The notes beneath the pieces are model-generated. The model did no database searches. It was given only the letters and a program-made list of their open reading frames with translations, and was not told the DNA's origin. 64,000 bases of DNA from an uncultured Legionellales bacterium (GTDB taxonomy: Bacteria; Pseudomonadota; Gammaproteobacteria; Eutrophobiales; Eutrophobiaceae), in the NCBI GenBank assembly GCA_913046215.1, contig CAJWRJ010000002.1, positions 5,950 to 69,949 on the forward strand, given 5' to 3'. A program made the translations under genes and the position numbers. Shown here piece by piece: positions 16,665 through 33,149 of the stretch (positions are counted from its first letter, which is position 1; the number at the start of each line of letters is the position of its first letter).

Positions 16665-17651
16665 TTACTCATATCCCTCTTTATTAAACCAACTTACGGC
16701 ATCATCTAATGCCTCAGATGCTGGTCTTGCATTGTAACCTAACTCTCTTTTTGCTTTATCACTAGAAAAATACATTATTTTTTTTGACATTTTTACGCCA
16801 TCAGTTGTTACAAGAGGTTCACTATGAGTAAATTTCGAGATACACTCCATAATCCATGCAATAGGTAAGATAAAATTGTGCGGCAATTTTATTTTTGGAG
16901 GATTTATTTTTTCAATAGAGCATAAATAATTAATTATTGATTCAAGAGACATGTTGTCCCCACCTAGAATATAACGTTCCCCAATTTTTCCTCTCTGCAT
17001 TGCGAGTAGGTGTCCATGAGCTACATCATCAACATGTGCAATATTCAATCCAGTTTCAACATAAGCTGGCATTCGGTTTCTAATCGTATCAAGAATAATT
17101 TTTCCAGTTGGGGTAGGTTTTATATCTCCCGGTCCGACAGGTGTAGAGGGGTTCACTATTGTAACGGGACATGCTTCGTTTTTTATTAGATCCATTACAG
17201 CTTCTTCTGCCAAAAATTTTGATTTTTTGTAAGTCCCCACCATGTTTTCAAGTGTTGAAAAAGTTGTTTCATTTGCAGAGGTGCCATCTTGATTGGTGCC
17301 GAGAGTTGCTACGCTACTAGTGTATACAATTTTTTTCACTCCCGCTTTTTTCGCTACCTTTATTAGATTTCTAGTTCCATCAATGTTAGTTTTAAACATA
17401 TCTTTAGAATCTGGAACCCATAATCTATAGTCTGCTGCAACATGAAAAACTTGTTCACAGGAATCAACAGCAGATTCCAATGATTCGATATTTTGTAAAT
17501 CACCTTCAATTACCTTAATATCAAAATCGAAAAGATTATGTGTATTGGCACCGGGTCTTTTCAATACCTGTAAGTCATAATCCTGCTTAACGAGCAGTCT
17601 TAATAAAGCAGAACCTACAAATCCAGTCGCACCTGTAATTAATGCTTTCAT
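16665..17651 (-). CDS. hpnA: hopanoid-associated NAD-dependent sugar epimerase/dehydratase
   Basis: N-terminal Rossmann motif GATGFVGS and an SDR extended-family YxxxK. It is the last gene of the shc-hpnG-hpnN operon. Confidence 0.7.
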   Translation of the reverse strand: MKALITGATGFVGSALLRLLVKQDYDLQVLKRPGANTHNLFDFDIKVIEGDLQNIESLESAVDSCEQVFHVAADYRLWVPDSKDMFKTNIDGTRNLIKVAKKAGVKKIVYTSSVATLGTNQDGTSANETTFSTLENMVGTYKKSKFLAEEAVMDLIKNEACPVTIVNPSTPVGPGDIKPTPTGKIILDTIRNRMPAYVETGLNIAHVDDVAHGHLLAMQRGKIGERYILGGDNMSLESIINYLCSIEKINPPKIKLPHNFILPIAWIMECISKFTHSEPLVTTDGVKMSKKIMYFSSDKAKRELGYNARPASEALDDAVSWFNKEGYE

Positions 17652-17655
17652 AAAA

Positions 17656-18264
17656 TTATTTTTTAAGTATTAGATAACTTCTTATTACGAAAAAATAGAA
17701 TATTGGCGCACCAATGGCTGCCGCAGTTATGAAGTAATATTCTAATTTATAATATGTAATGATTGGGAGAATATACAATGAATCCTCTGCTTCGAAACCA
17801 CTTTTGAATGGTTGACGGGCCTTATTTTTACCAATCTCTTTTTCGATTTTATTTCTTGTATAGAATATTGCTGCAACTGAAACACCAGCAACGATTCCTA
17901 TTGGTAGCGCATAAAAACCTAGACTGCTATGAATAAGGCCAATACTAATACCAATAAATAAAAATATATTAACAAGAGCATCAGAGATAAGGTCGTACGT
18001 ATGTCCTTTAATACTAGTTTCATTTTTTAATCTCGCTAACTCTCCATCAGCATGATCTAAAAAATTTGAAAACACAAAACAACACGCACCAGCATTACTG
18101 TATAAATATTCACCAATTGAAAAGAAAAACCCAGCTAAAAGTCCAAAAAATAATCTTAATGTTGTTAAATAATTGGGTGTAACGAAAGTATTACGAAGTG
18201 GATATATCAATCTATATGCGATTTGAGCATCCCATGGTCTACTATCTGATGGATCAATTAGCAT
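17656..18264 (-). CDS. CDP-alcohol phosphatidyltransferase family protein (paralog 1, between hpnN and hpnA)
   Basis: 202-aa polytopic protein with the complete catalytic motif D-x2-D-G-x2-A-R-x8-G-x3-D-x3-D (DHADGELARLKNETSIKGHTYDLISD). 6-bp gap to hpnN and 4-bp gap to hpnA. Confidence 0.8.
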   Translation of the reverse strand: MLIDPSDSRPWDAQIAYRLIYPLRNTFVTPNYLTTLRLFFGLLAGFFFSIGEYLYSNAGACCFVFSNFLDHADGELARLKNETSIKGHTYDLISDALVNIFLFIGISIGLIHSSLGFYALPIGIVAGVSVAAIFYTRNKIEKEIGKNKARQPFKSGFEAEDSLYILPIITYYKLEYYFITAAAIGAPIFYFFVIRSYLILKK

Positions 18265-18270
18265 TTTGCT

Positions 18271-20868
18271 TTATTTGTATGAAGAATCTCGCCATATCAA
18301 AAACGAGGGTAATACTATCATAGTTGCGAACATCATGGATATTAATCCCACTGATAAAAGTAATCCCATGCTTGCAGTGCCTTGATGTGATGAAAACGCA
18401 AGATTTCCGATACTAAATATTGTTGTTAGGCTACTTATAATGACACCCTTCATTGAGCTAGTTATATAAATATTAGTTTGTGTATTTTTTTCCTCATAGA
18501 ATCGCTCCGTAATATGAATACCACTATCAACGCCAATTCCAAGTAGTAACGGAAGACCGATGATATTCGCAAAATTCAGGGGAATATTAAAGAAAAGCAT
18601 GAATCCCAATGTGAAAATACTACCTATTAATACGGAAATAAGAATAATAAGCGCATCATATTTTATTTTTATTAGAAGCATCAATAGTATTGCTATTGCA
18701 ATAAAAGCACATAAAAACGCGAATTTGAATGCACTTTTTACAGCATTTCCAGCTTCAATACTTATAATTGGAGAACCAATAACATCTTTATTGAAATCTT
18801 GAAGTTGATAAACAAAATTTCTCATTGATATATTATTATTTAAATCTTCCTTAGGTAAAATTTTTATTAAATATTTTTCATCACTTACCCATCTTTTATA
18901 AATTTCATCTGGAATATTATTAATCGTAACTTCTTCAGCATTTAATGCATCTGATAATGCTTTTATCCGTCCTGGAAAATTTTCTAAAAATTGATTTTCA
19001 ATAGCTTTAATTTTTTTATCATCATCATCATTTAAATTAGATAATAGATTATTCAAGTTGCTATTTAGTAAAATCATCTGATTATCAGAATTATGCACCA
19101 GATAGTTATCTAATATAGTTTTTAGTTTTTTTATAGCAGCTATTCTATGATTTTTACTTATCTCTAATTCAGACGATCTGTTTTCTAAATTACCCATCAA
19201 TAAGCTCATTTCATCAATAATAATGAGTTTATCATTTTGTTCTTCAGGAATAAGATTATGTATAGATATTGCATTATCAACTAGAGGTAATAATTTAATT
19301 TCATTCTTTTTCAGATTGGTTTGATCAGCAGATTCAACTATTAGTATCCCTTCCCAAGGTGATGTAGAGCTATCTTTAAGTAGTTCCTGATACGTTTTTA
19401 CTGATTCATTTTTAGGATCTTGCAGATTTAATCTATTTTCATCGAAATCTATTTTATTTATGAATAATAAAATAAAAGAAACTATTAAAAATATAAATAT
19501 GAGAATAATTTTTGAATATTTATACGGTAACCAGCATAAAAAATTTATAATATTATTATTTTTTATAATATTAGCAGATCTTAGTGTTTTAATTGATGTA
19601 TAGCTTAGTAATGCAGGTAACAATGTTATGGTTAGGATAAAGCTAATTATCATTCCAGATCCTGCTATCCATCCAAGTTCAGCGACACCTGTATAGCTTG
19701 TTGGTATAAATGCATAAAATCCAATAGCCGTTGTTAAAGCACATAAGACTAGAGGTTTCATTATAAATTTTAATGTGTTTTTAATAATCTTAGTGCGATT
19801 TAACTCGGAAATAGATTCTTCTCTATATCTAAGGGCCATGTGTATTGCAAAATCAATTCCCAATCCGATATATAATACAGCGAATGCTATAGATATTAGA
19901 TTTAAAGTTCCAACTGTAATTGAAGCGAAGGCAGTTGTTATTATTAACCCAACTATAAGTGTCGTAAGGCAAGCTACTACAATACGAAAGGAACCAAGAC
20001 CAATGGTTAAAATAGTTGCGACGAGAATAATCGATAGAAAAATTGCTTTTATATTTGCGTTAGACACACTTTTTAGTTCTTCATAAGCTAAAACCTCGCC
20101 TCCTGTTAATTTGATATTAACTTTCGAATTTTTATATGGTTCTATAGCTTTTCGTATATATTCAATAGTATTTTCATTAGGTAATAGACTGTCATCAATT
20201 GTATTTATTTGTAGTTCAATAAATTCCCTATATGTATTCTTTTTTTCATATTTTGGATCCATTAATCTTTGCCATGAAACTGAATAATTTATATCACCGA
20301 ACGCAAGATTTATTTCAGATAGTATTGGATTTAATTGAATAGATTTATCATCTTGTTTAGCTTCAATAGCATCTCCGAGCATATCAAATAATCCACGTAA
20401 ATTTCTATCTTCAAGTAATGATCCTAAAAAAGGTTGAATTTTAGCGAGATTATCAGATAAGTCTTGTAATTCATCGTGTTCAAGAAATAGAAATGAAGAT
20501 TCCTTGAAGTAGGAAAAATCACTTTGATAGTAGATATTTTTTATGAAATTATTATTTTTTAATGAGGTAGAAATTTTTTGAGCAGTATCACTTGCTAAAT
20601 CTGGTGTTTGAGCTTCAATAACAATGATAATGTTATCTAAAAATTGTGGAAATAATTTTTCATACTGGATATCAAGCTGCCTCCAGTGTAACTTTTCCGA
20701 CAACATCTCACTGGTGTCTGTACTAAAACTTAAATTATTCTTAATAGTACTTAATGATAATATTGTAATTAGAGTGACAGAGAATATTATTAGAATTCTT
20801 CTTTTATCTAGAAACCTGCTCCAGAATGAAACAAGCCTTTCATTACGATATGTATTTTTTTTATTCAC
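18271..20868 (-). CDS. hpnN: hopanoid-associated RND/MMPL-family transporter
   Basis: 865 aa with two 6-TM bundles and large periplasmic loops (MMPL/RND topology). Embedded in the hopanoid operon. Confidence 0.75.
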   Translation of the reverse strand: MNKKNTYRNERLVSFWSRFLDKRRILIIFSVTLITILSLSTIKNNLSFSTDTSEMLSEKLHWRQLDIQYEKLFPQFLDNIIIVIEAQTPDLASDTAQKISTSLKNNNFIKNIYYQSDFSYFKESSFLFLEHDELQDLSDNLAKIQPFLGSLLEDRNLRGLFDMLGDAIEAKQDDKSIQLNPILSEINLAFGDINYSVSWQRLMDPKYEKKNTYREFIELQINTIDDSLLPNENTIEYIRKAIEPYKNSKVNIKLTGGEVLAYEELKSVSNANIKAIFLSIILVATILTIGLGSFRIVVACLTTLIVGLIITTAFASITVGTLNLISIAFAVLYIGLGIDFAIHMALRYREESISELNRTKIIKNTLKFIMKPLVLCALTTAIGFYAFIPTSYTGVAELGWIAGSGMIISFILTITLLPALLSYTSIKTLRSANIIKNNNIINFLCWLPYKYSKIILIFIFLIVSFILLFINKIDFDENRLNLQDPKNESVKTYQELLKDSSTSPWEGILIVESADQTNLKKNEIKLLPLVDNAISIHNLIPEEQNDKLIIIDEMSLLMGNLENRSSELEISKNHRIAAIKKLKTILDNYLVHNSDNQMILLNSNLNNLLSNLNDDDDKKIKAIENQFLENFPGRIKALSDALNAEEVTINNIPDEIYKRWVSDEKYLIKILPKEDLNNNISMRNFVYQLQDFNKDVIGSPIISIEAGNAVKSAFKFAFLCAFIAIAILLMLLIKIKYDALIILISVLIGSIFTLGFMLFFNIPLNFANIIGLPLLLGIGVDSGIHITERFYEEKNTQTNIYITSSMKGVIISSLTTIFSIGNLAFSSHQGTASMGLLLSVGLISMMFATMIVLPSFLIWRDSSYK

Positions 20869-20909
20869 TTCAAATCAATTAGTTTATTTTGTAGGAATTT
20901 ATTCTAGAT

Positions 20910-21659
20910 TTAAACTTTAAAAATATATTCTTTATTAGGGTTACGTTCAATATCAGGAGGATAGCTAAGACGTTTATCAGAATAGTACTTTTCGCGACTA
21001 TCGCCTTCCGACATTGCATTATATGTTACATAGAGCACTCTTCTTTTAACATGAGTTAGATTTGGCCCAGAGCGATGCGGTGCGTATGAATCAAAAAATA
21101 TAGCATCACCGGGTTCTGTTTGTACGGGTTTGTAATCAAGCGCATTTTCCTCAAGGGGCGCCCATTGCTCTCCAATTAAACCTTTATCATGATGATTGGC
21201 AGCTATTTCAAGACATCCATTTTCAGTATTTGAGGCATCAATAGTTACTAATGCTGTAATATGTAGCTTTGCATACTTGTCCCATCCTGCCTGAACATCC
21301 TGATGAGCCTTAAATCCATCACCACCTGGCATTTTAAAATTTATTTTATCCTTGAATAGAATTGCATTTTCTCCAAATAGTTCAGATGTTATGTTTTGAA
21401 TTTTTCCAGATATGAAAAGCTCACTAAAACCTTTATGAAAGGGTTCTAAATTTTCCATACGCGATAGTATTCGTTTTTTTTCATTAATCTTACTTTGTTC
21501 AAAATACATCATATATTTATTTTTAATCTCAGGATAATTTGCAACCTCATCAACCCATTGTGTGATCTCATTCAGTTCTTCTCCGTAGTACAATTTACGT
21601 ACTATTAAAAAACCAGTATTTTTGAAGTTTTGAATTTGTTTATTAGATAATCTCATCAT
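20910..21659 (-). CDS. phytanoyl-CoA dioxygenase (PhyH)-like Fe(II)/2-oxoglutarate-dependent oxygenase
   Basis: 249 aa with a PhyH-like layout. Candidate H-x-D...H facial triad (HQD ... APHRSG). Lies between hpnG and hpnN in the same operon. Confidence 0.55.
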   Translation of the reverse strand: MMRLSNKQIQNFKNTGFLIVRKLYYGEELNEITQWVDEVANYPEIKNKYMMYFEQSKINEKKRILSRMENLEPFHKGFSELFISGKIQNITSELFGENAILFKDKINFKMPGGDGFKAHQDVQAGWDKYAKLHITALVTIDASNTENGCLEIAANHHDKGLIGEQWAPLEENALDYKPVQTEPGDAIFFDSYAPHRSGPNLTHVKRRVLYVTYNAMSEGDSREKYYSDKRLSYPPDIERNPNKEYIFKV

Positions 21660-21674
21660 AAAATTTTAATAAAT

Positions 21675-22397
21675 TTATAATTTATTATATATAAAAAAAT
21701 CTCTTTTCTTAAATTCATCATACATATTATTTAATGATGATAATGACTTAATATAGCTCTTTATTAGGGAGATTAATTGAAATAATTGAAATGGATTTTG
21801 TAATGATGATTTTAAAAAACTTTTTATTTTAATTTTTCCGAAGTTATCAATATTTTCTAAAAATATAGATGGTATATTTGAATATGCATCATCTATTATC
21901 ACACGCGCTGATACAAATTTTATTTTTTTTTCAAGAGAAATTTTAGCTATAGCTGCACTTTCCATATCAACTGCTAATGCTTTTGTTTGGTTTGATAATT
22001 CCCTTTTTTTAATTGATGAATCAAGAATTTTATTAGTTGTCACAATTTTGCCATTTAATACTTTGTATGGTGTAGTCTGAAGATGGGAACTGATAGAGTT
22101 TCTCCATTCATTCGAAGTATAAAATATTTCTTTATCATTTTGTATAGTATCAGCTAGAACGATATCACCTGTTTTTAGTGATTGATCTATACCTCCTGCC
22201 ATTCCCCAACTTATCAATCCATCTATATTTTTTTTAACTAACTCCTTCGCTGCTGATGTTGCAGCATCAAATCCAATTCCGGATATGTATAAAAAAATAT
22301 TCTTTTCAATTTGTATTGATTCTTTCAGAGCTAATTTTTTTAACCGAAAGCATTTTGCTTCAGATGGTATAGCTATAATAATTCCAATTCTTTTCAA
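21675..22397 (-). CDS. hpnG: hopanoid-associated nucleoside phosphorylase/nucleosidase (PNP/UDP family)
   Basis: 240-aa PNP_UDP_1-like fold (GIIIAIPSEA ... GMAGGI). Immediately downstream of shc with a 1-bp gap. Confidence 0.7.
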   Translation of the reverse strand: MKRIGIIIAIPSEAKCFRLKKLALKESIQIEKNIFLYISGIGFDAATSAAKELVKKNIDGLISWGMAGGIDQSLKTGDIVLADTIQNDKEIFYTSNEWRNSISSHLQTTPYKVLNGKIVTTNKILDSSIKKRELSNQTKALAVDMESAAIAKISLEKKIKFVSARVIIDDAYSNIPSIFLENIDNFGKIKIKSFLKSSLQNPFQLFQLISLIKSYIKSLSSLNNMYDEFKKRDFFIYNKL

Positions 22398-22398
22398 G

Positions 22399-24342
22399 TT
22401 ACTTTTCTAATATGTTTCGATATCGAGCAAGCGCCCAAAGAGGAAAATATTTCGAATAGCCATGATATTTTAAATAAAAGACACGGGGAAATCCTGGCGC
22501 TGTAAATGAATTGTCATACCATTGCCCGTTTGATAATTGAGTCGATAGCAGATAATTTACTGCTTTTTTAACAGACGGATTTTTTTCCTCTCTGGATGCT
22601 AATAGCGAGAGCAACACCCATGCAGTCTGAAAAGCGGTACTTTTGAATGGCCTATGTATTTTAGGAGGATAATAACTGTCATTGCTTTCACCCCATCCCC
22701 CATCATCATTCTGAGTAGAAACAAGATATTTGACGGCTTTACGAATATAGTCTTGTTGTGGATCTTGTCCTGCAATCTCAAGAGCGGTCAGTACTGACCA
22801 AGTACCATATATATAATTAGTACCCCAACGACCAAACCAAGAACCATTTTCCTCCTGCTCAGTTTTGAGATATTCAATTGCGCTATTGATTTGTTTTTCA
22901 TACATCTCTACATCAGCTAGACTTAATAGAGCTATTGCTCGTCCGGTTACGTCTGCAGTAGGGGGGTCAAGTAAAGCACCGTGATCTGCAAATGGAATTT
23001 CATTAAGATAATAATGTGTATTATCGGTATCGAACGAACCAAAACCACCATTTCGAGACTGCATACCAGCAACCCAGTTAGCAGCACGATCTATTGATTT
23101 AGAATATATGTTCTTTTTTGTTCTATGCATAGCCCATGCAACGACCGATGTATCATCTAAGTCAGGATAATAATAATTGCTATATTGAAAAGCCCAACCA
23201 CCACCAGCTAATTCTGGTTTTTGTATACGCCAGTCACCGGGTTCATTACTTAACTGACGTTCTTTAAGCCAATCCAGTGCATTTTTAATTTCCGTTGTTG
23301 TATTTTTTTCATTTTCAGTTTCTATTAAGGCATGACTTACTAGCGCGGTATCCCATATAGGCGACATACAAGGCTGGCAATACATTGATGTTCCGTTATC
23401 TTTCAATAATGAATCAATTGCTTGACGAGCTAACTTTCTTTTTGGATCACTTTTTGGGTATCCAAGTACAACTAACGATTCATATACATTAACCATTGCA
23501 GGAAAAATACCACCAATACCGTGTTTTTCATTCATCCTTGCTAAAAACCATTGCTCACATTTTCTTATAGAATATTGTCGTATAAATTTAGGAACTAATT
23601 TTTCAGCTAAACGTCCGAAACGATCAAGAACCAAAAATGCACGTTTTAGAGGTGTTGTTACTTTAAAATAGTTTAATTCATCTTCTGGAGGCGTAATAAA
23701 TAATTCTCTTATATCAATACCTCTTGGATTAGATGCTTTTGGTTTCATTGTGCACAAAACAAATAAAGGCACCATGACAGTACGAGACCAATAGGAGACT
23801 TTGTTAATATGAAATGGAAACCACTTAGGTAAAATTATAACTTCAGCAGGTATAAAAGGTGTTGCTCTCCAAGGCACCTGTCCAAATAGTGCCATCGTGA
23901 TTCTCGTGAATACATTACACATTGCCGCACCACCATGATTTAAAATCATAGTTTTTGCACGAATCATATGTTCTTCATGAGGCTCATCACCTATTAGTTT
24001 TAAAGCAAAATAAACTTTAACAGAGCAACTTAAATCAAAATTACCTCCAGTGTATAAAGACCAGCCACCTTCTTCATTTTGTTGTGAACGTAAATATTCA
24101 GCTATTTTCTCTTCTTTATCGTTATCAATTTCCCCAGTGAAGTGGTTCATTAAAATATATTCAGCAGGAATAGTGCAATCAGCCTCAAGCTCATATACCC
24201 AATGACCATCATTAGATTGTTTTGACAGTAGGTTTTTTTTAGCAGAATTAATTGCTTTATTTAAGCTTAACGTGAAGTCTTTATTGCGTATATTATTAGC
24301 AGACTGGCTGAGCAAGCTCTCGTTTTGATTATCTAATGTCAT
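22399..24342 (-). CDS. shc: squalene-hopene cyclase
   Basis: 647 aa. DxDDTA catalytic motif present as DLDDTS. Multiple QW repeats (QNEEGGW, QSRNGGFGSF, QEENGSWFGRW, QNDDGGWGE, QLSNGQW). Confidence 0.92.
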   Translation of the reverse strand: MTLDNQNESLLSQSANNIRNKDFTLSLNKAINSAKKNLLSKQSNDGHWVYELEADCTIPAEYILMNHFTGEIDNDKEEKIAEYLRSQQNEEGGWSLYTGGNFDLSCSVKVYFALKLIGDEPHEEHMIRAKTMILNHGGAAMCNVFTRITMALFGQVPWRATPFIPAEVIILPKWFPFHINKVSYWSRTVMVPLFVLCTMKPKASNPRGIDIRELFITPPEDELNYFKVTTPLKRAFLVLDRFGRLAEKLVPKFIRQYSIRKCEQWFLARMNEKHGIGGIFPAMVNVYESLVVLGYPKSDPKRKLARQAIDSLLKDNGTSMYCQPCMSPIWDTALVSHALIETENEKNTTTEIKNALDWLKERQLSNEPGDWRIQKPELAGGGWAFQYSNYYYPDLDDTSVVAWAMHRTKKNIYSKSIDRAANWVAGMQSRNGGFGSFDTDNTHYYLNEIPFADHGALLDPPTADVTGRAIALLSLADVEMYEKQINSAIEYLKTEQEENGSWFGRWGTNYIYGTWSVLTALEIAGQDPQQDYIRKAVKYLVSTQNDDGGWGESNDSYYPPKIHRPFKSTAFQTAWVLLSLLASREEKNPSVKKAVNYLLSTQLSNGQWYDNSFTAPGFPRVFYLKYHGYSKYFPLWALARYRNILEK

Positions 24343-24398: not shown

Positions 24399-25454
24399 TT
24401 AAAGTTTCTCATGAATATTAACTCTAGGCAAATGTCGCCCAGTAAGTTTAATAAGAAATCTCAATATAGCATCATTTTTTACGAAAATGCTTGTAATTAG
24501 AATGGTTAATTTTACACTAAGATGACTAATTTTTACTTCTTTTCCATTGGTAAAATTTGGGTTTTTTCTAATTTTTTCCAGCGTTAACACGGCCATTCCA
24601 ATAGCCCATAAGCAGAATTTACGCAAACCTATTTCATTTTTTGGGATCAATAAAGTATAAGTCAATGCATTTTCAAGGTGAGCATATGCAACTCCCAATA
24701 ATTCAATTAATGCATTATTAAATTCATTTATATTCTGATTAGGTTTTTTAGTGCTTATGTCAATACCATATTTTTTAAAATGATCTTTTGGTAGCCAACA
24801 TGCTCCCCTACTATGATCTTCCCAAATATCCTTCAGGATATTTGTCATTTGTAATCCTTGCCCAAACGAAACAGCTAGCTCCATTAATTTTTTTTGATTT
24901 TTATCAATATCAGTTGAATAATCACAAAATAACTCAGTTAACATTTCACCCACAACCCCAGCTACATGGTAGCAATAATCATTCATGTCTTTTATATTCT
25001 TTAATCCATTTAATGATTCCTCGATTTGATATTTAGCCATACCCTTACACATAATTGAAACGCAACGATTTAAGGCACTTAATTGTCGCTTGTTAAAACT
25101 ATGTGTTACACGGATAACTTTTTCTGTATTAGCAATTAAGTTATGTTCTGCATCAGTTGCATTTGGTGAGAGTATATCGAATAGTTTTTTAGAAAAAATA
25201 TTAACATTTTTATTATTTCTTACTACATCAATAAACATATCAGCGTACTCTTTCTTTTGTTCAATAGACATTGATTTATCATCTTCAATTGAATCTGCTA
25301 TTCGACAAAGAAGGTATGCATTAGATACAACCAGTCTTAATTTCTCTGGTAATTGGGGTATTGTAAGAGCAAATGTACGGGAAACATGTTGTAATATCAT
25401 ATGTTGGTAAGCAACATCATCCGGAACTGTGTTAAACTCTTGCGTGGATTTCAT
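24399..25454 (-). CDS. sqs: squalene synthase (single-enzyme, eukaryote-type farnesyl-diphosphate farnesyltransferase)
   Basis: 351-aa isoprenoid_synt_type2 enzyme with VSRTFALTIPQLP (the SQS SRSF-type motif) and Asp-rich ADSIEDD. First gene of the operon ending in hpnA. Confidence 0.8.
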   Translation of the reverse strand: MKSTQEFNTVPDDVAYQHMILQHVSRTFALTIPQLPEKLRLVVSNAYLLCRIADSIEDDKSMSIEQKKEYADMFIDVVRNNKNVNIFSKKLFDILSPNATDAEHNLIANTEKVIRVTHSFNKRQLSALNRCVSIMCKGMAKYQIEESLNGLKNIKDMNDYCYHVAGVVGEMLTELFCDYSTDIDKNQKKLMELAVSFGQGLQMTNILKDIWEDHSRGACWLPKDHFKKYGIDISTKKPNQNINEFNNALIELLGVAYAHLENALTYTLLIPKNEIGLRKFCLWAIGMAVLTLEKIRKNPNFTNGKEVKISHLSVKLTILITSIFVKNDAILRFLIKLTGRHLPRVNIHEKL

Positions 25455-25565: not shown

Positions 25566-26300
25566 ATGAATATATATAATTTAAATAATAATGAAATTGA
25601 TCTCTCCACAAAGAATATTTATGTTCTATTATTAAATTTTTCCATGTTAAATTATCAAGATTACATGACATATTTATCTGATGATGAAATACAAAGAGTT
25701 GATAACATAAATAATAAAATTAAAAAAAATCAATTTGTTATTTCTAGAGCCATTGTAAAGAAGCTATTATCGAAATATTTGAGTAAAATACCAAATCAAA
25801 TTGAATTCTCATACAACAAACATGGAAAACCATTTGTACCTGAAAAATATAATAATCATAGTTTAGAGTTTAATATTTCACATTCAGATATATATGGATT
25901 AATAGCAATTACATTAGACAATAAGATAGGTGTTGATATACAAAGGGTTAATCATGACATTAATATAGATTCATTATCTGAACGTTTCTTTAGTGAAGAT
26001 GAAAAAGAACAATTAATGAAATTTGATAAAAATAAAAGAGCAGATGTTTTCCATAATTGCTGGGTTAAAAAGGAATCATTTATTAAAGCAATTGGATCAG
26101 GTGTAGCATATGGTCTTGATAATTTTAGTGTCTCATTAGAGGAAAACCATCGTAATTATGTCTTAGATTTAAAAAATAAAAAATGGTACTGTTATAAATT
26201 AATTGAATTTGAAAATTACAAAACTGCTTTAACAATGGAAACAAAATCTAATATTTTTCTATCATATAAAGAAAATTATATCAGTAATATTCTGCACTAA
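25566..26300 (+). CDS. Sfp/EntD-type 4'-phosphopantetheinyl transferase
   Basis: Motifs GKPFV, IGVDIQ and W-x-x-KES-x-x-KA-x-G (WVKKESFIKAIGSG). Confidence 0.75.
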   Translation: MNIYNLNNNEIDLSTKNIYVLLLNFSMLNYQDYMTYLSDDEIQRVDNINNKIKKNQFVISRAIVKKLLSKYLSKIPNQIEFSYNKHGKPFVPEKYNNHSLEFNISHSDIYGLIAITLDNKIGVDIQRVNHDINIDSLSERFFSEDEKEQLMKFDKNKRADVFHNCWVKKESFIKAIGSGVAYGLDNFSVSLEENHRNYVLDLKNKKWYCYKLIEFENYKTALTMETKSNIFLSYKENYISNILH

Positions 26301-26306
26301 AAATAA

Positions 26307-27101
26307 TTGAGTATATCTAGTATGAAAAATACTACGCATAATTGGTATGACCTTCCAACATATTATGACGTTTCATTTTCATATGATATGAAAGATGAAT
26401 TGTCCTTTATTAGTAACGTATTTAGAAAATATTTAATATTGAATTCACCAAAATTGCTCGAGCCAGCATGTGGAACAGGACGTTTAATTGTCCCATTGGT
26501 AAAAAAAGGATTTAATTGTTCTGGATTTGATTTAAATGAAAATGCATTATTATATTTAAAAGAAAAACTTAATCGTAATAATTTGTATGCAAATATAAAG
26601 AAAGCTGATATGTCTACTTTTGAAGTAGAGAATAAATATGATGGAATTTATTGTACAGTCGATACATTTCGACATCTTCTTACGGAAAAAAAAGCAATAC
26701 AACACTTAGAAAATGTTTCGTTCGCACTAAAGAAAAATGGCATATATATATTAGGATTACATATAATTCCTAGACATAAAAAAATTGAAAAAATAGTCAA
26801 GTGGACTGCAAGAAGAGGTTCTTTAACAGTTAAAACAATCATGTCAATGATAAAGCTTGATATGAAAAGAAGAAGAGAGACATTGAGGGTAGTCTTAAAA
26901 ATTAAAAAAAATACTACTAGAGAATCCTATGTATCTATATATCAGTTAAGGACATATACATTGCCTCAGATATTAAACATAATAAATAAAGTAGAGGATT
27001 TAGAAATTATCAATACCTACAATGAGTACTATGATTTATCTAGTCCAATAATTTTAAATTCTGACTCAGATTATGCTGTATTCTTACTTCGTAAAAAGTA
27101 A
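26307..27101 (+). CDS. class I SAM-dependent methyltransferase
   Basis: Motif I LEPACGTGRL and an acidic motif II (GFD). 264 aa. Confidence 0.7.
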   Translation: MSISSMKNTTHNWYDLPTYYDVSFSYDMKDELSFISNVFRKYLILNSPKLLEPACGTGRLIVPLVKKGFNCSGFDLNENALLYLKEKLNRNNLYANIKKADMSTFEVENKYDGIYCTVDTFRHLLTEKKAIQHLENVSFALKKNGIYILGLHIIPRHKKIEKIVKWTARRGSLTVKTIMSMIKLDMKRRRETLRVVLKIKKNTTRESYVSIYQLRTYTLPQILNIINKVEDLEIINTYNEYYDLSSPIILNSDSDYAVFLLRKK

Positions 27102-27111: not shown

Positions 27112-27699
27112 CTAATTAGTTATTTTTTTTAATAAATAATATGTAAATATTGCAAATATAGGAGCACCTACCGATGCACCGATGAGAAAAGGAAGATGCC
27201 AGTTTAACCAAACTATCGGGGCAAAAAGATATATGATATCGTCGAAATCAAAACCAGCTATTCCTGTGTATGCTTTTTCTCCTGTGGCTCTCTTTTTTTG
27301 ATCTATTTTTTCAGCAAAAATCTCAGAAAAAATTACGCCAATACACGCAGACAAACCCATCATTATTGTCAGATAGTTAGGTAATTTATCTTGTAGGCCT
27401 ATCCCGATTGCTAGAAAAAAAAGTGCCGTAATAAAAGTGTCAGTGTAATAGTCAAATTTATGACCTAAAGAACTAATATTTCCAGAGATTCTAGCAAGCT
27501 CTCCATCAGCTCTATCAAGAAAAGTTGATATTATCCACATTACACCACCCAAAATATTCATTTTTAATGCAAAAGCAACACATGCTGCCAATCCTATTAT
27601 TAGCCTTAAAAGTGTGACGTGATTTGGAGTGATAGGCGTATTGACTAACGGTTTAATACATACTCGAGCAATCTTATGAGTCCAAGAGTCACCAATCAT
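27112..27699 (-). CDS. CDP-alcohol phosphatidyltransferase family protein (paralog 2, last gene of hpnI-J-K operon)
   Basis: 195 aa. Full catalytic motif DRADGELARISGNISSLGHKFDYYTD. Shares N-terminal ITPNxxTLLRL and C-terminal GAPIF segments with paralog 1. 2-bp gap after hpnK. Confidence 0.8.
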   Translation of the reverse strand: MIGDSWTHKIARVCIKPLVNTPITPNHVTLLRLIIGLAACVAFALKMNILGGVMWIISTFLDRADGELARISGNISSLGHKFDYYTDTFITALFFLAIGIGLQDKLPNYLTIMMGLSACIGVIFSEIFAEKIDQKKRATGEKAYTGIAGFDFDDIIYLFAPIVWLNWHLPFLIGASVGAPIFAIFTYYLLKKITN

Positions 27700-27701
27700 T
27701 T

Positions 27702-28433
27702 TTATGAGTTGAAGCCCGAAAGTTCAATATTAAATTTTTCGATAGTTCTTTTTATTCGAGCGTGTATAAGGGCTTTGTATTCTTCAACAAACTCGTAGTT
27801 ATAAAGTGTATTATCATTTTCTGTTGAGGGGTGAGTATAAATTTCAGTTATACCATCTTTTATATGCGGAATAATACGCACAAGTTTATCAATATTCATA
27901 TGCCCACTATCATGTAGACCATAAATATAATTGTTAAAAATAATCTTATTGTTTTTACATTTTTTCTCCATTTGATATGTAAATATCGAAAAAAATAACC
28001 ATCTAATATATCTCATAAAAAATTCTTTTTTATTATAAATAATTGAATTAAGAGGAGGTTCATTTGGAATACGGATGGCTGTTAAATTATACTCCCTTCC
28101 AATTTCTATAATTAAATTAAATATAGTTGGGTGAAGGTGCATATGATTATGTGCATTTACATGATCTAGTTTTAAACCTGTTTTTTTAAATGCTTTAAAT
28201 TGCGCCCGTATTTCTTTTTTTAGTTCAGATCTCGCTTTGTTATTGAAAAAATAATTTACTCCACACCAAAATTTATTATTACTAAACTCACATTTACTAT
28301 TTACCAAATTTGGTATTTCGACAATTGGTAATGAAGATTTCCCATTAGATAGTACAATATGCAAACCTACGTTTAATTCAGGATTTTTTTTTGCAATTTT
28401 TACTGCATGGCTGGCTTCTGGTGCAGCAATCAT
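27702..28433 (-). CDS. hpnK: hopanoid-associated YdjC-family deacetylase HpnK (annotated from first ATG; the true N-terminus very probably extends ~35 codons upstream to a CTG at 28538, see findings)
   Basis: YdjC-like core. The in-frame upstream sequence encodes the family's catalytic N-terminus KKVIVTGDDFGLSVPVNNAILKSFTNGILTTTSL, which aligns to ChbG LLIVNADDFGLS...GIVTSTT. Confidence 0.7.
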   Translation of the reverse strand: MIAAPEASHAVKIAKKNPELNVGLHIVLSNGKSSLPIVEIPNLVNSKCEFSNNKFWCGVNYFFNNKARSELKKEIRAQFKAFKKTGLKLDHVNAHNHMHLHPTIFNLIIEIGREYNLTAIRIPNEPPLNSIIYNKKEFFMRYIRWLFFSIFTYQMEKKCKNNKIIFNNYIYGLHDSGHMNIDKLVRIIPHIKDGITEIYTHPSTENDNTLYNYEFVEEYKALIHARIKRTIEKFNIELSGFNS

Positions 28434-28534
28434 TAGGCTTGTTGTTGTTAATATCCCATTCGTGAAGGATTTTAATATGGCATTGTTTACAGGAACTGAA
28501 AGACCAAAATCATCACCCGTAACAATTACTTTTT

Positions 28535-29956
28535 TCAGACTGTATTCTCCCGTCCAAACAAGAATTTGAAAAATTCAACACCTTCTCTTAGTCTGCGTTT
28601 CATAATTTCCCAATCTTTGCACATTTCAAAAAATAGTATAACCATTTTTTTTGGCCTAAAATAAAAACGTTTATAGAAATTATCAACTGCTTCAAAAATT
28701 TCTTTACTTGAAAGATGTGGATAATTGAGTATTGAGTGTTGAACTCCATCACTACCAACTAAATCATCATCCGCAACTAACCAACCATTTTCAACTGCCT
28801 GATTATATAAGTAAGTTCCTGGATAGGCGGCAGGGAGTGATACCTGTATTGTTTGTGGGTTTAACTCTTGTGCATATTTTATCGTCTCTTCTATAGTTTC
28901 ATTTGTTTCGCCTGGCAAACCCACAATAAATGTTCCATGAATAAGAATTCCCAGTTTATGACAATCTCTTGTGAATTGTCTTGCTATATCAAGCCTTATG
29001 CCTTTTTTTATATTTACTAATATATCTTGATTTCCAGATTCATATCCAACTAGCAGCAAACGCAAACCATTATCTTTCATAATTTTTAGTGTTTCATATG
29101 GGACATTTGCTTTCGCATTACAAGACCATGTAATACCAAGTTTTCCAATTTCTTTTGCAAGAGCTTCAACATGAGAAATATTGTCGGTCAATGTGTCATC
29201 ATCAAAAAAGAATTCTTTAATTTCAGGAAAGTTATCACGCGCCCATAATACTTCTGCAGCAATATTTTCCACAGAACGTGTCCGGTAATTATGTCCAGAG
29301 ATTGTTTGAGGCCATAAACAAAAAGAGCAACGAGATTTACAACCTCGACCCGTATAAAAGGACATATAAGGGTGAAGCATATAGCCATTAAAATAATCAG
29401 TAGTAGTAAGATGTTTTTTATAAACTTTAGTAACCCATGGAAGACTATCCATATTTTCAATCATTGCACGAGGTTTATTATGTATAACAACTCCATTTTT
29501 TTTATAGGTTAATCCATCTATATTTTCTATTATTTTCCCTTCTGCTACTTCTTTAATCGTAAAATCAAATTCATTTCCAGCAACAAAGTCAATTGCATCT
29601 GAAGCAAGAATTGAGTGATCTGGATTAACTGCTACATGCGCACCACAAAAACCAATAATAAGATTTTTGTTTTCATGTTTTAGTGCTTCAGCAATGCGTA
29701 CATCATTAGGAAATGAGGGAGTGCTTGTGTAGAGAACTATTAATTCATAATCTTTAGCTAGAGGTAGAATATCTTCAAGTGAAGTACCTCTTGCTGGCGC
29801 ATCTATTAATTTACTTCCTTCAATTAATGCAGCTAATTGTGCAAGCCATGTTGGATACCAAAAAGATTTAACTTCACGCGTACATTGATAACGTGAACCT
29901 GCACCTCCATCAAAGCCGTTATAGGATGGCGGATTTAAAAAAAGTGTTTTTAACAT
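28535..29956 (-). CDS. hpnJ: hopanoid-associated B12-binding radical SAM protein HpnJ
   Basis: 473 aa. N-terminal cobalamin-binding-like domain followed by a radical-SAM CxxxCxxC (GCKSRCSFC). Its size and domain order fit HpnJ rather than the shorter HpnH. Confidence 0.75.
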   Translation of the reverse strand: MLKTLFLNPPSYNGFDGGAGSRYQCTREVKSFWYPTWLAQLAALIEGSKLIDAPARGTSLEDILPLAKDYELIVLYTSTPSFPNDVRIAEALKHENKNLIIGFCGAHVAVNPDHSILASDAIDFVAGNEFDFTIKEVAEGKIIENIDGLTYKKNGVVIHNKPRAMIENMDSLPWVTKVYKKHLTTTDYFNGYMLHPYMSFYTGRGCKSRCSFCLWPQTISGHNYRTRSVENIAAEVLWARDNFPEIKEFFFDDDTLTDNISHVEALAKEIGKLGITWSCNAKANVPYETLKIMKDNGLRLLLVGYESGNQDILVNIKKGIRLDIARQFTRDCHKLGILIHGTFIVGLPGETNETIEETIKYAQELNPQTIQVSLPAAYPGTYLYNQAVENGWLVADDDLVGSDGVQHSILNYPHLSSKEIFEAVDNFYKRFYFRPKKMVILFFEMCKDWEIMKRRLREGVEFFKFLFGRENTV

Positions 29957-29978
29957 ATTATCATTAATTCAGTTTGTG

Positions 29979-31208
29979 TTATGTATCTTGAGGTGAAATA
30001 GTGTCAGTTGTTTTATTTTCACGGTTTTTCTCTGATGAAATTATTTTTTCATCATGCATTAAACCTAGATGATCAACAGCGAATTTATTTTTACGCCACT
30101 CCACGGAATTTCCAGCATAACTCAATATTCTTATAAAAAAGGTTAGTGTATCTCGTAGCGGAATTAACCATATTTTTCCAACTCTCCCCGAATCTGTAAC
30201 TTCATTAGTTTTAGAATACATATATACTCTTATAATAAGGGTTATAAATATAGGAAATAAAAATAATACAAAACTATTACCTATCACATAAAGTGAAGTC
30301 CCAGCAAAAATGCTCAAAATTAAACTATCCGTTAAAAAAGTGAGAGCATAACCATAAGGCTCTACTCGTCTAAGTGTTCTTGCCCAACGTAGTTCATGTA
30401 AAATTAAATTTTTAAACGAGGATTCCTCAACTACATTCTTCACGATACAGTTCGATAAATGAATTTTATAGCCAATATTAGATATTAGTTTTCCTAACAT
30501 GTAGTCATCAGCTAGATGATTTGATAATGCTTCAAATCCACCAATTTTATGAAGAATACTTCGTCTTACTATCATTGTAGCACCTAGACAATACTCTATA
30601 GGTTTTATCATTTTTGATATTAATACCGATGGTAGAAACCAGTTATTTATGAACATTGTATTTAACATAGATGTTATTTTTTTTGTAGCTGATCCAAAAT
30701 AAAGACAAGTAATAGCACCAGTATTAGGATCGTCAAATGGTTTTATCACTTGAGATAGATAGTTTTCGTTAACCTGCATGTCACTATCAGCGATAAGCAT
30801 AAATTCATACTTTATTGAAGGACACATGTTTATCAAATTTGATACTTTATGATTTGTTCCATGTCGTTCCGTATTTATTATGAAACTTATATCAACATCA
30901 TTCAGCTCTTTTATAATCTTTTTTACTATAGGTAACGCTTCATCATTAACATCTTGCAATCCAAAAATAATTTGGTATTTCGGGTAATTTTGTTGACAAA
31001 AGCTCTTTAGATTTATGTACATTTCCGGATCAAGCCCATAAATCGGTTTTAATATACTAATTGGAGGCTGGAATTTCTTATCGTCTGAAAATGTATTTTT
31101 GTTCTTAAAAATTGAAATAGCTACTAAACCAGCGAATAGATATCCTAAGGAGAAGATCCAAAGTGATATTGATGCCATTAACAATATGTTGAGAAAATCA
31201 ATTTGCAT
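29979..31208 (-). CDS. hpnI: hopanoid-associated family-2 glycosyltransferase
   Basis: 409 aa with an N-terminal TM, GT2 fold, DxD (ADSDMQ) and a C-terminal TM region. First gene of the hpnI-J-K operon. Confidence 0.65.
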   Translation of the reverse strand: MQIDFLNILLMASISLWIFSLGYLFAGLVAISIFKNKNTFSDDKKFQPPISILKPIYGLDPEMYINLKSFCQQNYPKYQIIFGLQDVNDEALPIVKKIIKELNDVDISFIINTERHGTNHKVSNLINMCPSIKYEFMLIADSDMQVNENYLSQVIKPFDDPNTGAITCLYFGSATKKITSMLNTMFINNWFLPSVLISKMIKPIEYCLGATMIVRRSILHKIGGFEALSNHLADDYMLGKLISNIGYKIHLSNCIVKNVVEESSFKNLILHELRWARTLRRVEPYGYALTFLTDSLILSIFAGTSLYVIGNSFVLFLFPIFITLIIRVYMYSKTNEVTDSGRVGKIWLIPLRDTLTFFIRILSYAGNSVEWRKNKFAVDHLGLMHDEKIISSEKNRENKTTDTISPQDT

Positions 31209-31379
31209 ACGTCAATTTTACTCTTTTAGCACCATTTGAAAAATGAGATGTGTTTGTATTTGCACCAATAACTATTAGTAAGTTATTACATGTATAAGAT
31301 ACTATAATATATTGATTTTAACTAATTTATGCAAATTCCTGTTAATTATACCAATTATCTCAATTTAAGAAACAGCAAA

Positions 31380-32354
31380 TTATTCGCTTTTTCGTAGGTA
31401 ATTCATTTCTATGTATTGCCAATAAAGCAATCCAGGAAGATCTATTATTATTTCTCTTATTCGGGTTGCTAAAGACAGGGCAAGAGAAAATTCTGGTGTT
31501 AAACCAATTAAAACTCCCAGCATAAGATAACCACCTTCTTGGACACCGTAACCATTAGGTATTATAAATGCTAGGTCGGTTATGATAGAAGTTAAGCTTT
31601 TAAGCATCAAAGCTTCAAACAAACTAATTGGGTGGCCAAGTAGATAACAAGCCAACCAGACCTCCGATGTCTGCAAAATCAATCCTAGAGTTCGCCACAG
31701 AATAGATACAAAAAATCTTTTTTTATCATTATAAATGTCTTTAACAAGCAGATCTATATCGGTTGCTTTAAGTGTTATTTCACCCCAATCTGTCGTGTTA
31801 TTGTACTTACCAATAATGTTTGCGAAAAAACTAAATATTCCTGCCCGTTGGACAAATATAAAGCCAGCTAAACCTAATCCTAGTAAAAAAGTACCCAACA
31901 TTATGTACATTGCTAATTCATTATCAATTGCAAGAAAAATTAATAAGGCAGTACCAATAATCGCCCATGGTATTAGTGCTAATGCTTGTACGGTTTTATC
32001 TACAAGTACAGACGCACATACATTTTTTGCTGGTCTTCCCCATAAAATTAATAGACGTGCTTTCGCGATTTCCCCGCCTATCGTTGCAACAGGTAAAATA
32101 GTATTTATGGCTCTTCCTATCCACAATGACAAAAATAATTCTTTAAAGGGAGGGATTGTCTTTTTTGGAAATAAGTAATACCACGATATTACAGCAACAA
32201 CAAAACTAGGTAGCCAAACTATCGGCAGAGAGAGCAATAACAAACCAGATTTAGATAATAAATCTAGAATTTCATCAAATCCTTGCCAAAAAATAAGCAA
32301 GGTAAGTACGAAAAGACCAAGTACTAAACCAATGAATGATAGTGTTCTAATCAT
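31380..32354 (-). CDS. hpnL: HpnL-like polytopic membrane protein (UPF0104 / lysyl-PG-synthase TM-region-like)
   Basis: 324 aa with ~8 TM. Located between the hpnIJK operon and CDP-alcohol phosphatidyltransferase paralog 3. Confidence 0.5.
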   Translation of the reverse strand: MIRTLSFIGLVLGLFVLTLLIFWQGFDEILDLLSKSGLLLLSLPIVWLPSFVVAVISWYYLFPKKTIPPFKELFLSLWIGRAINTILPVATIGGEIAKARLLILWGRPAKNVCASVLVDKTVQALALIPWAIIGTALLIFLAIDNELAMYIMLGTFLLGLGLAGFIFVQRAGIFSFFANIIGKYNNTTDWGEITLKATDIDLLVKDIYNDKKRFFVSILWRTLGLILQTSEVWLACYLLGHPISLFEALMLKSLTSIITDLAFIIPNGYGVQEGGYLMLGVLIGLTPEFSLALSLATRIREIIIDLPGLLYWQYIEMNYLRKSE

Positions 32355-32471
32355 GTTTTATATAATAGGAAAGATGCTTGTAAATTACCGTTTTATTTTT
32401 ATCAACTAACACTTAGAATAGCAAGCGAGACAAAATGATACTATATAATTGATAAAACATAGTTAATTATC

Positions 32472-33149
32472 ATGAACACTAAAATAAAAAAATATCCTAC
32501 CCAGATATTCCCTTTAGTTAGGCACTTATCTTATCGACTAACCCCTTTTTTGTTAAAAACCTCCATCACACCCAACCAAATAACACTCTTATCACTAATA
32601 TTTGGTTTGTTATGTGGATTCTGTTTTATCATTGGCTCATATTATCTTCAAATAGTTGGAGCTTTATTCTTCATCATTAGTTATGTGCTAGATAACTGTG
32701 ACGGTGAAATTGCTCGAATAAAAGACATGTCATCTGAGTTTGGTGCAAAATTTGATGACATTGTTGATTGGGTTGTCGATGCATTTTTCTTTATATCACT
32801 CGGGTATGGCGTTAGTGAAGTGAGCGGTCATAGTTTTTGGTTTTTTTTGGGTATTATTGCGGCATCCGGAGCATTTATTGATTACATTATAGATTTACGT
32901 TACCACGCTAGAAACGAATCAAATTCAGTCACTAGAGAGCAACAAGCCAAACAAAAAAAGATACCTGAAAATAAAATTGATTGGCTGATATATATATTCC
33001 ATAAATTGAGTCGTGCTGATTTTTGCTTTATTGTTTTTATACTAACGTTGTTCAATTTAATATATATATTACTCCCATTCGCTGCAATAGGCGCACAGGT
33101 TTATTGGATAACAGATCTATTTGAAAGAGCAAGAGGTTATAAGACCTAG
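32472..33149 (+). CDS. CDP-alcohol phosphatidyltransferase family protein (paralog 3, divergent from hpnL)
   Basis: 225 aa. Full catalytic motif DNCDGEIARIKDMSSEFGAKFDDIVD. N-terminal ITPNQITLLSL as in paralogs 1 and 2. Confidence 0.8.
   Translation: MNTKIKKYPTQIFPLVRHLSYRLTPFLLKTSITPNQITLLSLIFGLLCGFCFIIGSYYLQIVGALFFIISYVLDNCDGEIARIKDMSSEFGAKFDDIVDWVVDAFFFISLGYGVSEVSGHSFWFFLGIIAASGAFIDYIIDLRYHARNESNSVTREQQAKQKKIPENKIDWLIYIFHKLSRADFCFIVFILTLFNLIYILLPFAAIGAQVYWITDLFERARGYKT

Follow-up and report, generated by a model that had tools for sequence, protein, structure and literature searches.

Hopanoids are widely used molecular fossils, and their producers in the open ocean are poorly known. In the known pathway, the products of hpnG, hpnI, hpnJ and hpnK act downstream of adenosylhopane, itself the product of the radical S-adenosylmethionine (SAM) enzyme HpnH, and HpnG is expected to remove adenine from adenosylhopane. 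The hpnI, hpnK and hpnJ genes are all required for bacteriohopanetetrol (BHT) cyclitol ether (PMC5462960). Three other genes, hpnA, hpnB and hpnL, have no established function (PMC12583986; 10.1101/2025.07.29.667474), and neither of these two sources mentions CDP-alcohol transferases or phosphonates. Phosphonolipid genes have been described separately. A seven-gene module named "Burkholderiales_CDP-OH", or Group-1 phosphonolipid, has as its predicted product a 1-hydroxy-2-aminoethylphosphonate lipid that has never been isolated, and the same source raises a possible "phosphonoterpene" in Nitrosococcus (PMC8942020). For Roseomonas, a "terpene-phosphonate" has been suggested (PMC8776678). Here, we describe a hopanoid locus interleaved with three genes for CDP-alcohol phosphotransferases (CAPT1 to CAPT3). 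It occupies positions 16665-33149 of a stretch of 64,000 nucleotides, hereafter the window, that corresponds to positions 5,950-69,949 of the forward strand of contig CAJWRJ010000002.1 (assembly GCA_913046215.1).

The hopanoid assignment of the locus is secure. Gene calls were taken from a listing of open reading frames (ORFs), and family scores, in bits, were compared with the curated NCBIfam/TIGRFAM cut-offs (Table 1). The core string of genes, on the minus strand, reads sqs-shc-hpnG-PhyH-hpnN-CAPT1-hpnA with intergenic gaps of 1-56 bp, PhyH standing for the gene of a PhnY-like dioxygenase. A second string on the same strand reads hpnL-hpnI-hpnJ-hpnK-CAPT2. Each CAPT gene is packed against a hopanoid gene, as hpnN-CAPT1-hpnA, hpnK-CAPT2 and CAPT3/hpnL. 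Taken together, we consider it reasonably probable that this is an ordinary, inherited locus for hopanoid synthesis and export to which a probable, chemically undescribed phospho- or phosphono-headgroup branch has been joined. The head-group branch is suggested by tight synteny that recurs across three proteobacterial classes.

The original prediction had the gene order, the strand and the coordinates of the core operon right; it overlooked CAPT1 between hpnN and hpnA, and its generic PhyH-like oxygenase proved to be PhnY-like. Its second operon, hpnI-hpnJ-hpnK, was recovered on the minus strand with every product above its cut-off. The hpnL gene, said to follow this operon, instead lies upstream of hpnI on the same strand. 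The list of accessory genes was incomplete: the three CAPT genes, a phosphopantetheinyl transferase gene and a methyltransferase gene went unmentioned.

The hidden Markov models proposed earlier as a check gave scores above the cut-off for seven of the nine families, namely squalene-hopene cyclase (SHC), HpnA, HpnN, HpnI, HpnJ, HpnK and HpnL, with HpnG and Sqs falling below. We then compared the locus with its relatives. A scan of one genome per GTDB species yielded 34 related loci, all from uncultured metagenome-assembled genomes (MAGs). SHC carries the expected DLDDTS motif at residue 394; its QW motifs, previously counted as five, are six canonical QxxxGxW repeats plus one GGF variant. Sqs reaches 130 bits with TIGR01559 (cut-off 286.75), 77.6 bits with the HpnD model and 49.4 bits with the HpnC model, likewise under their cut-offs. 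Both of its Asp-rich motifs are kept (DSIED at residue 54, DIWED at residue 209), the protein is 53-73% identical in the relatives, and the gene is always directly upstream of shc. The hpnG gene starts 1 bp after the end of shc and has the same position in all relatives, with an identity of only 28-49%. The Mycetohabitans HpnG orthologue passes TIGR03468 with 193.4 bits. With a model stricter than the one in Table 1, NF052374, HpnN obtains 554 bits and does not reach the cut-off of 1100. The radical-SAM triad CxxxCxxC of HpnJ reads CKSRCSFC at residue 206. HpnJ is 84-89% identical in the relatives, and HpnK is 67-72% conserved among the closest ones. A search of PDB sequences returned no close structure for HpnL.

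The start of hpnK had to be corrected. The start called by the ORF tool, at 28433, drops an in-frame conserved segment, KKVIVTGDDFG (encoded within 28433-28538, minus strand), and the resulting protein scores only 258.6 bits, whereas the full-length protein covers profile positions 2-279 of 283. The start is most likely a CTG codon overlapping the TGA stop of hpnJ (C-TGA). The in-frame N-terminus is also present in relatives L007, L009 and L034. Given this start, the gaps among hpnI, hpnJ, hpnK and CAPT2 are 2-22 bp, and 171 bp separate the end of hpnL from hpnI. In scaffold L004 (~5970-6240), hpnK appears split into two ORFs; a run of 10 Ns identifies this as a scaffolding gap and not a pseudogene. 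A sterol link, raised by matches of HpnA to SdmB and of HpnN to BstA, was dropped because the hopanoid models score far higher for both proteins.

The three CAPTs contain the full PF01066 motif, Dx2DGx2ARx8Gx3Dx3D, at residues 70 (CAPT1), 62 (CAPT2) and 74 (CAPT3). They are 31-36% identical in pairs, with 35% for CAPT1 against CAPT2. A housekeeping function as PgsA or PssA was considered and rejected, the CAPTs scoring only 20-29 bits against cut-offs of 109.1 and 107. Among relatives with the same arrangement, the CAPTs are 64-76% conserved: CAPT2 is 73-76% identical in the closest relatives, and for CAPT3, at the same position, identity is 69-70% (L008, L009) or 64% (L034). The nearest solved structures to CAPT1 are those of AF2299 and of di-myo-inositol-phosphate-phosphate synthase (DIPPS). 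A tblastn search with CAPT1 against 72,556 plasmid and chromid records matched 15 of them only, from Mycetohabitans, Burkholderia, Cupriavidus and Roseomonas. CAPT1 shares 48% identity with the transferase in the phosphonate module of Mycetohabitans (36% for CAPT2) and 45% with the CAPT of a gammaproteobacterial hpnN-CAPT-hpnA operon, L150, presented below.

The best NCBIfam match of the PhyH protein is methylphosphonate hydroxylase (NF052437, 207.9 bits, 1.8e-61), at a score that does not reach the equivalog cut-off of 500. An alignment to a solved PhyH-family enzyme places its HxD motif (H119-Q-D121) on the H-Q-D of that enzyme, with a further His downstream in the aligned PH segment. No close structure was found for this protein in the PDB sequence search. 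Of the 29 relative loci extending to this point, 27 have it in the same place, at 62-73% identity. More distant homologues, about 37% identical, were found in two settings: a PhnY-PhnZ arrangement in Rhodococcus, with a gene for an HD-domain protein alongside, and a position between a cytidylyltransferase gene and LicD on a Rhizobium rhizogenes plasmid.

Table 1. Features of the hopanoid locus and of its right flank (positions in the window; scores in bits, with the curated cut-off in parentheses).
Feature	Positions	Strand	Assignment and score	Remarks
hpnA	16665-17651	-	Hopanoid-associated NAD-dependent epimerase/reductase; TIGR03466 474.7 (367.65)	Last core gene
CAPT1	17656-18264	-	CDP-alcohol phosphotransferase	Between hpnN and hpnA
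hpnN	18271-20868	-	RND/MMPL hopanoid exporter; TIGR03480 785 (751.85)	
PhyH	20910-21659	-	PhnY-like Fe(II)/2-oxoglutarate dioxygenase (Pfam PhyH)	Between hpnG and hpnN
hpnG	21675-22397	-	HpnG-like phosphorylase/nucleosidase (PNP_UDP_1); TIGR03468 166.6 (187.1)	Under cut-off
shc	22399-24342	-	Squalene-hopene cyclase; TIGR01507 802.3 (431.1)	
sqs	24399-25454	-	SQS_PSY-family single-enzyme squalene synthase; Pfam SQS_PSY match	First gene of core operon
PPTase	25566-26300	+	Sfp/HetI-type phosphopantetheinyl transferase; HetI model 143 (370)	Under cut-off
Methyltransferase	26307-27101	+	SAM-dependent methyltransferase; methyltransferase domains	
CAPT2	27112-27699	-	CDP-alcohol phosphotransferase	2 bp downstream of hpnK
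hpnK	27702-28538	-	YdjC-type deacetylase; TIGR03473 315.2, full-length (232.6)	
hpnJ	28535-29956	-	B12-binding radical SAM enzyme (ring contraction to cyclitol ether); TIGR03471 762.3 (577.6)	
hpnI	29979-31208	-	GT2 glycosyltransferase (BHT N-acetylglucosamine transfer); TIGR03472 381.5 (310)	
hpnL	31380-32354	-	Flippase-like membrane protein (LPG_synthase_TM); TIGR03476 253.7 (195.65)	
CAPT3	32472-33149	+	CDP-alcohol phosphotransferase	Divergent from hpnL
ispB	33155-34309			Right flank
rplU	34345-34659			Right flank
rpmA	34675-34932			Right flank
obg	35069-36085			Right flank

The association of CAPT genes with hopanoid genes was also observed in other bacteria, together with phosphonate genes. 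In Mycetohabitans rhizoxinica, a hopanoid cluster of order hpnD-shc-hpnG-GT-hpnA-hpnH-ispH-hpnM-hpnN-dxs (GT, glycosyltransferase) runs straight into a phosphonate module. The latter encodes, in this order, 2-aminoethylphosphonate (AEP) aminotransferase, phosphonopyruvate decarboxylase, phosphoenolpyruvate (PEP) mutase, a cytidylyltransferase, an HpnL protein, a 2-oxoglutarate (2OG) oxygenase and a CAPT. Roseomonas marmotae has this module, minus the oxygenase, between hpnH-ispH and hpnN. The flippase-like proteins of such modules pass the HpnL model TIGR03476 (372.5 bits in Burkholderia, 329.8 in Mycetohabitans and 259.6 in Roseomonas), so that HpnL belongs to the same family.

Seven further HpnH-bearing places in other Gammaproteobacteria (GC 0.37-0.68; L130-L153, L061, L086, L150) share one architecture running from hpnA to hpnS, within a supercluster of order sqs-hpnG-hpnN-CAPT-hpnA, hpnL, 2OG oxygenase, PntC, Ppm-PntC, Ppd, aminotransferase, dxs, hpnH, hpnB, hpnM, hpnS. 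Hopanoid genes are thus joined to a complete AEP pathway and to two cytidylyltransferase genes, and hpnA is preceded by a CAPT gene wherever the sequence extends far enough. In L150, the operon sqs-hpnG-hpnN-CAPT-hpnA has overlaps of 4 bp at both the hpnN/CAPT and the CAPT/hpnA junctions, and shc is outside the cluster. In this sister lineage, the operon contains no PhyH gene, and a different 2OG oxygenase is encoded within the phosphonate module. The swap fits a functional replacement of PhyH, without proving it.

The following pathway can be proposed. Its first part follows from the sequence assignments: Sqs would make squalene, which SHC would cyclise to C30 hopanoids. HpnG, HpnI, HpnK and HpnJ, the known enzymes of these steps, would process adenosylhopane, supplied by an HpnH presumably encoded elsewhere, and convert BHT to BHT-glucosamine and BHT cyclitol ether. 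At the cytoplasmic face of the membrane, the CAPTs may attach a polar phosphate or phosphonate group, activated with CMP, to one of the hydroxyls on the hopanoid side chain. AEP is the best precedent for the transferred group. The PhnY-like dioxygenase would hydroxylate this group or its precursor. HpnL would then flip the product into the outer leaflet of the inner membrane, from where HpnN, as a predicted RND-type hopanoid exporter, would export it. The identity of the transferred group is the weakest step because the donor-forming genes are not in the window.

In its most specific form, the proposal is an undescribed class of composite hopanoids, with a phosphodiester or phosphonate head group attached by a CAPT to a bacteriohopanepolyol, HpnL as the flippase, HpnN as the exporter and several variants arising from the three CAPTs. 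We regard this form as possible rather than probable. Within it, (1-hydroxy-)2-aminoethylphosphonate is the leading candidate for the head group.

Several observations weigh against the head-group branch. No tblastn or Pfam match to PEP mutase, phosphonopyruvate decarboxylase, AEP aminotransferase or cytidylyltransferase was obtained in the window or in L007-L040. The top-ranked literature matches for bacteriohopane and phosphonate include no paper in which bacteriohopane is mentioned, and the literature searched contains no bacteriohopanepolyol bearing a phosphate or a phosphonate. Moreover, B. cenocepacia, B. multivorans and Cupriavidus sp. P-10 have an intact seven-gene module with no hopanoid genes within 15-20 kb, and its lipid acceptor could therefore be diacylglycerol and not a hopanoid. 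This leads to an alternative in which the locus is a plain hopanoid locus and the CAPTs, HpnL and the PhnY-like oxygenase act on ordinary glycerolipids, being merely co-located and co-regulated with the hopanoid genes as a general membrane-remodelling set. The product could, for instance, be a phospho- or phosphonolipid built on diacylglycerol, which is what has been predicted for the Burkholderiales Group-1 clusters. The stand-alone modules fit this explanation, as does the presence of psd in the window (9351-10208). The position of CAPT1 inside the operon, 6 bp from hpnN and 4 bp from hpnA, argues against it, and so do the 4-bp overlaps of L150. Furthermore, the module is repeatedly embedded in hopanoid clusters of Alpha-, Beta- and Gammaproteobacteria, and the four genera that alone hold CAPT1 homologues in the plasmid collection all have SHC matches there too. 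Overall, an action on glycerolipids appears somewhat unlikely, though it deserves serious consideration beside the head-group branch.

The distribution of the dioxygenase also weighs against the proposal. PhyH is kept in many relatives without CAPT1 at the locus, and its role may therefore be independent of the transferases. It could, for instance, be a hopanoid side-chain hydroxylase, contributing to lipids of the bacteriohopanepentol type and unrelated to any phospho- or phosphono-head group. This fits a gene fixed between hpnG and hpnN in 27 of the 29 loci extending that far, many without CAPT1 or hpnL nearby. It also counts for this explanation that, to our knowledge, no enzyme adding the extra side-chain hydroxyls of penta- and hexafunctionalised hopanoids has been identified. 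However, the nearest characterised family is a phosphonate hydroxylase, the ~37%-identical homologues stand in phosphonate or cytidylyl-transfer contexts, and the sister lineage without PhyH has its different 2OG oxygenase in the phosphonate module. We thus judge a side-chain hydroxylase unlikely and prefer a PhnY-like enzyme acting on the head group or its precursor.

The last objections concern the hopanoid pathway itself: HpnG and Sqs score under their curated cut-offs, and hpnH (TIGR03470) was not found. A radical-SAM motif scan of the window and of the 34 relative loci with 10 kb on either side returned HpnJ as the sole radical-SAM ORF, and within the window HpnJ is the only CxxxCxxC-containing ORF of at least 250 residues. 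A tblastn search with Mycetohabitans HpnH gave no match in the window or in L007-L040, and NCBIfam and Pfam scans of the remaining ORFs of the window gave no match to hpnH either. The 10 kb past the right end of the window contain no hpnH and no hopanoid or phosphonate genes. The earlier claim that the locus makes BHT-glucosamine and BHT cyclitol ether is consequently supported in one part, hpnI, hpnK and hpnJ being the reported cyclitol-ether set (PMC5462960), and conditional in another, as it depends on an hpnH that is not at the locus.

An AT-biased scan of metagenome contigs for HpnH motifs produced 80 loci. Those low-GC ones that are long enough to include neighbouring genes have an hpnA-ispH-hpnH order; they were rejected as members of the lineage of the window and assigned to other lineages because their own shc, where the sequence extends to it, is only 43-48% identical to that of the window. 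Six homologues of the HpnH of L086 were examined, and all fall in a different gammaproteobacterial group whose HpnA is ~50-55% identical to that of the window lineage; it was these homologues that brought the hopanoid-phosphonate supercluster to light.

These results raise the alternative of a truncated pathway, in which the lineage is without hpnH and makes C30 hopanoids only (diploptene, diplopterol), the hpnG-like gene, hpnI/J/K and the CAPT genes acting on other substrates or decaying. The failure to find hpnH in any locus examined agrees with this, as do the sub-threshold score and the fast evolution of HpnG (28-49% identity as compared to 66-80% for SHC). On the other side, HpnJ and HpnK, whose motifs are intact and whose scores clear the cut-offs by a wide margin, are well conserved in the closest relatives. 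Such conservation would be hard to explain, in a compact genome, had the one substrate known for them been lost. In addition, hpnH is apart from shc in other bacteria, as in L150. A truncated pathway is therefore, in our opinion, quite improbable. Because HpnJ is so conserved and HpnG, HpnI, HpnJ and HpnK act after adenosylhopane, we infer an hpnH gene in another part of the genome.

The host, an AT-rich marine gammaproteobacterium that is uncultured and cosmopolitan, has been recovered at many TARA Oceans stations. In the assembly collection, 44 indexed blocks contain an identical SHC, the scaffolds displayed being mainly from TARA Oceans, and one TARA scaffold is 99.8% identical to the window across 21.9 kb. 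The MAGs of the 34 relatives, whose SHC is 66-80% identical to that of the window, are mostly titled Gammaproteobacteria, the others Legionellales, Thiotrichaceae or Enterobacteriaceae bacterium. With a GC content of ~0.33, gammaproteobacterial titles among the relatives and identical genes on TARA Oceans scaffolds, the window is well described as AT-rich and gammaproteobacterium-like, as had been proposed. The location between an Mrp-like module, ending at 16660, and the ispB/rplU block, starting at 33155, was likewise given correctly.

In contrast, the idea of an inserted accessory region does not stand. The core order sqs-shc-hpnG-PhyH-hpnN-(CAPT1)-hpnA recurs in the relatives, and Mrp-like antiporter genes come next in 17 of the 34 loci, among them every locus reaching past hpnA except a group with other genes after hpnA (psd ~3 kb off). 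L023, which is more distantly related, already has the order obg-ispB...hpnL-sqs-shc. Neither GC nor its value at third codon positions (GC3) differs between the locus and the flanking genes (Mann-Whitney p ~0.11). Convergent gene ends are 4-10 bp apart. No tRNA, integrase, mobility gene or repeat scar was detected at the borders of the locus, and the only tRNA, at 56483, is 23 kb away.

We nevertheless considered a horizontally acquired island between the Mrp module and the ispB/rplU block. Hopanoid genes are patchy among bacteria, and the segment hpnI-J-K-CAPT2 with the phosphopantetheinyl transferase/methyltransferase pair is confined, between hpnL and sqs, to the closest relatives and, in part, to L034 and L038. 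Against an island stand the core-Mrp adjacency kept in 17 species-level relatives, a composition that is not distinct and the clean borders, and we find it very improbable. Gene order and composition indicate that the locus is vertically inherited; at most, the segment between hpnL and sqs was gained later within the lineage.

Several relatives deviate in the region upstream of sqs. In L034, a class-III aminotransferase gene (7210-8643) lies between CAPT2 and sqs; its best NCBIfam matches are PigE and ArgD-like, all under the cut-off. It is possibly an HpnO-type gene, which would imply aminobacteriohopanetriol. L013 (1-6671) and L015 (50-6859), which are without hpnI-J-K, have a giant ORF of ~2,220-2,270 residues and a gene of ~560-570 residues upstream of sqs on the opposite strand. 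In the window, the phosphopantetheinyl transferase and methyltransferase genes (25566-27101, plus strand) are wedged between both hopanoid operons with no carrier-protein gene nearby, and the pair is at the same place only in the four closest relatives, L007, L008, L009 and L040.

On the left flank, the end of hpnA is 4 bp from the end of the convergent gene of an Mrp subunit. The Mrp-like module (11474-16660) encodes a small MrpC-like subunit, then three large MrpD/NuoL-like subunits of 494, 488 and 557 residues, one of which contains the NADH-dehydrogenase-related domain PF10125. It directly follows the nuo operon and a psd-PCuAC-SCO1 trio (9351-11330). According to NCBIfam and Pfam scans, the remainder of the window is housekeeping, with nuo, psd, SCO1/PCuAC, proB, murJ, ribF, ileS, lspA, ispH, thiO, fur, metY, photolyase, gdhA and other genes. 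After manC, the region 60360-62824 encodes DUF6165, a heptosyltransferase-like GT9 protein and DUF6607, an order kept on TARA scaffolds L154 and L155. Just upstream of tRNA-Thr (56483-56558) is an ORF of 373 residues (55254-56375) that matches no NCBIfam or Pfam model. A consensus scan for promoters and terminators found fewer promoter-like sites than in shuffled sequence, AT-rich DNA making such a scan uninformative.

With this locus, a near-complete hopanoid pathway is assigned to a lineage of uncultured Gammaproteobacteria, identical genes of which are found repeatedly on TARA Oceans scaffolds. Should the head-group branch be confirmed, an orphan "hopanoid-associated" gene, hpnL, would gain a function; hpnL and hpnA are still listed without an assigned function in 2025-26 surveys. 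It would also bear on the very common Group-1 "phosphonolipid" clusters, and it would mean that an abundant open-ocean bacterium makes several head-group variants, tying hopanoid biomarkers to the marine phosphonate cycle. With hpnN-CAPT-hpnA-hpnL recurring beside AEP genes in Alpha-, Beta- and Gammaproteobacteria, what was a loose "phosphonoterpene" speculation becomes a specific, testable hypothesis.

Comparison with individual enzymes helps to place the unusual components. AF2299, DIPPS and archaetidylinositol phosphate synthase provide the closest solved structures and the best NCBIfam matches of the CAPTs, with an identical catalytic motif. However, these matches reach 29-69 bits, well under the cut-offs, and the CAPTs are without the fused cytidylyltransferase domain. 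In the case of PhnY/PhnY*, the window PhyH protein has NF052437 as its best match and keeps the HxD motif and the later aligned His. It differs by a score of 208, far under 500, and by its context: the gene is in a lipid operon with hpnG and hpnN as neighbours and no PhnZ HD-domain partner.

The locus has several features in common with the Group-1 clusters (Li and Horsman 2022, PMC8942020). Both "phospholipid" genes of these clusters have a homologue in the window: CAPT1 shares 43-49% identity with the transferases found in Mycetohabitans, Burkholderia and Cupriavidus, and the window HpnL passes the same TIGR03476 model as their flippase-like protein. An Fe/2OG oxygenase is also found in both. 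However, the window has no PEP mutase, phosphonopyruvate decarboxylase, AEP aminotransferase or PntC cytidylyltransferases, its oxygenase is PhyH/PhnY-like instead of HalD-like, and it has three CAPT paralogues instead of one. The superclusters (Mycetohabitans rhizoxinica pBRH01, Roseomonas marmotae p1318-3 and gammaproteobacterial MAGs such as JAVJVZ010000021.1) share the backbone sqs-(shc)-hpnG-hpnN-CAPT-hpnA with hpnL adjacent. Unlike the window, they combine hpnH, hpnB, hpnM and hpnS in cis with a complete AEP pathway; they have neither the PhyH gene nor hpnI/J/K, and their SHC and HpnA are only ~50% identical to those of the window.

Finally, the locus resembles the canonical hpn clusters (Rhodopseudomonas palustris, Zymomonas mobilis, and hpnI/J/K of Burkholderia cenocepacia) in that SHC, HpnG, HpnN, HpnA, HpnI, HpnJ and HpnK score at or near the cut-offs. 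It departs from them in making squalene via a single Sqs-type enzyme and not HpnC/D/E, in having no hpnH, hpnB, hpnM or hpnS at the locus, and in adding the PhnY-like dioxygenase between hpnG and hpnN and three interleaved CAPTs. Overall, what is new in gene content is the combination of a PhnY-like oxygenase and three CAPTs, with Sqs replacing HpnCDE and hpnH in trans or absent.

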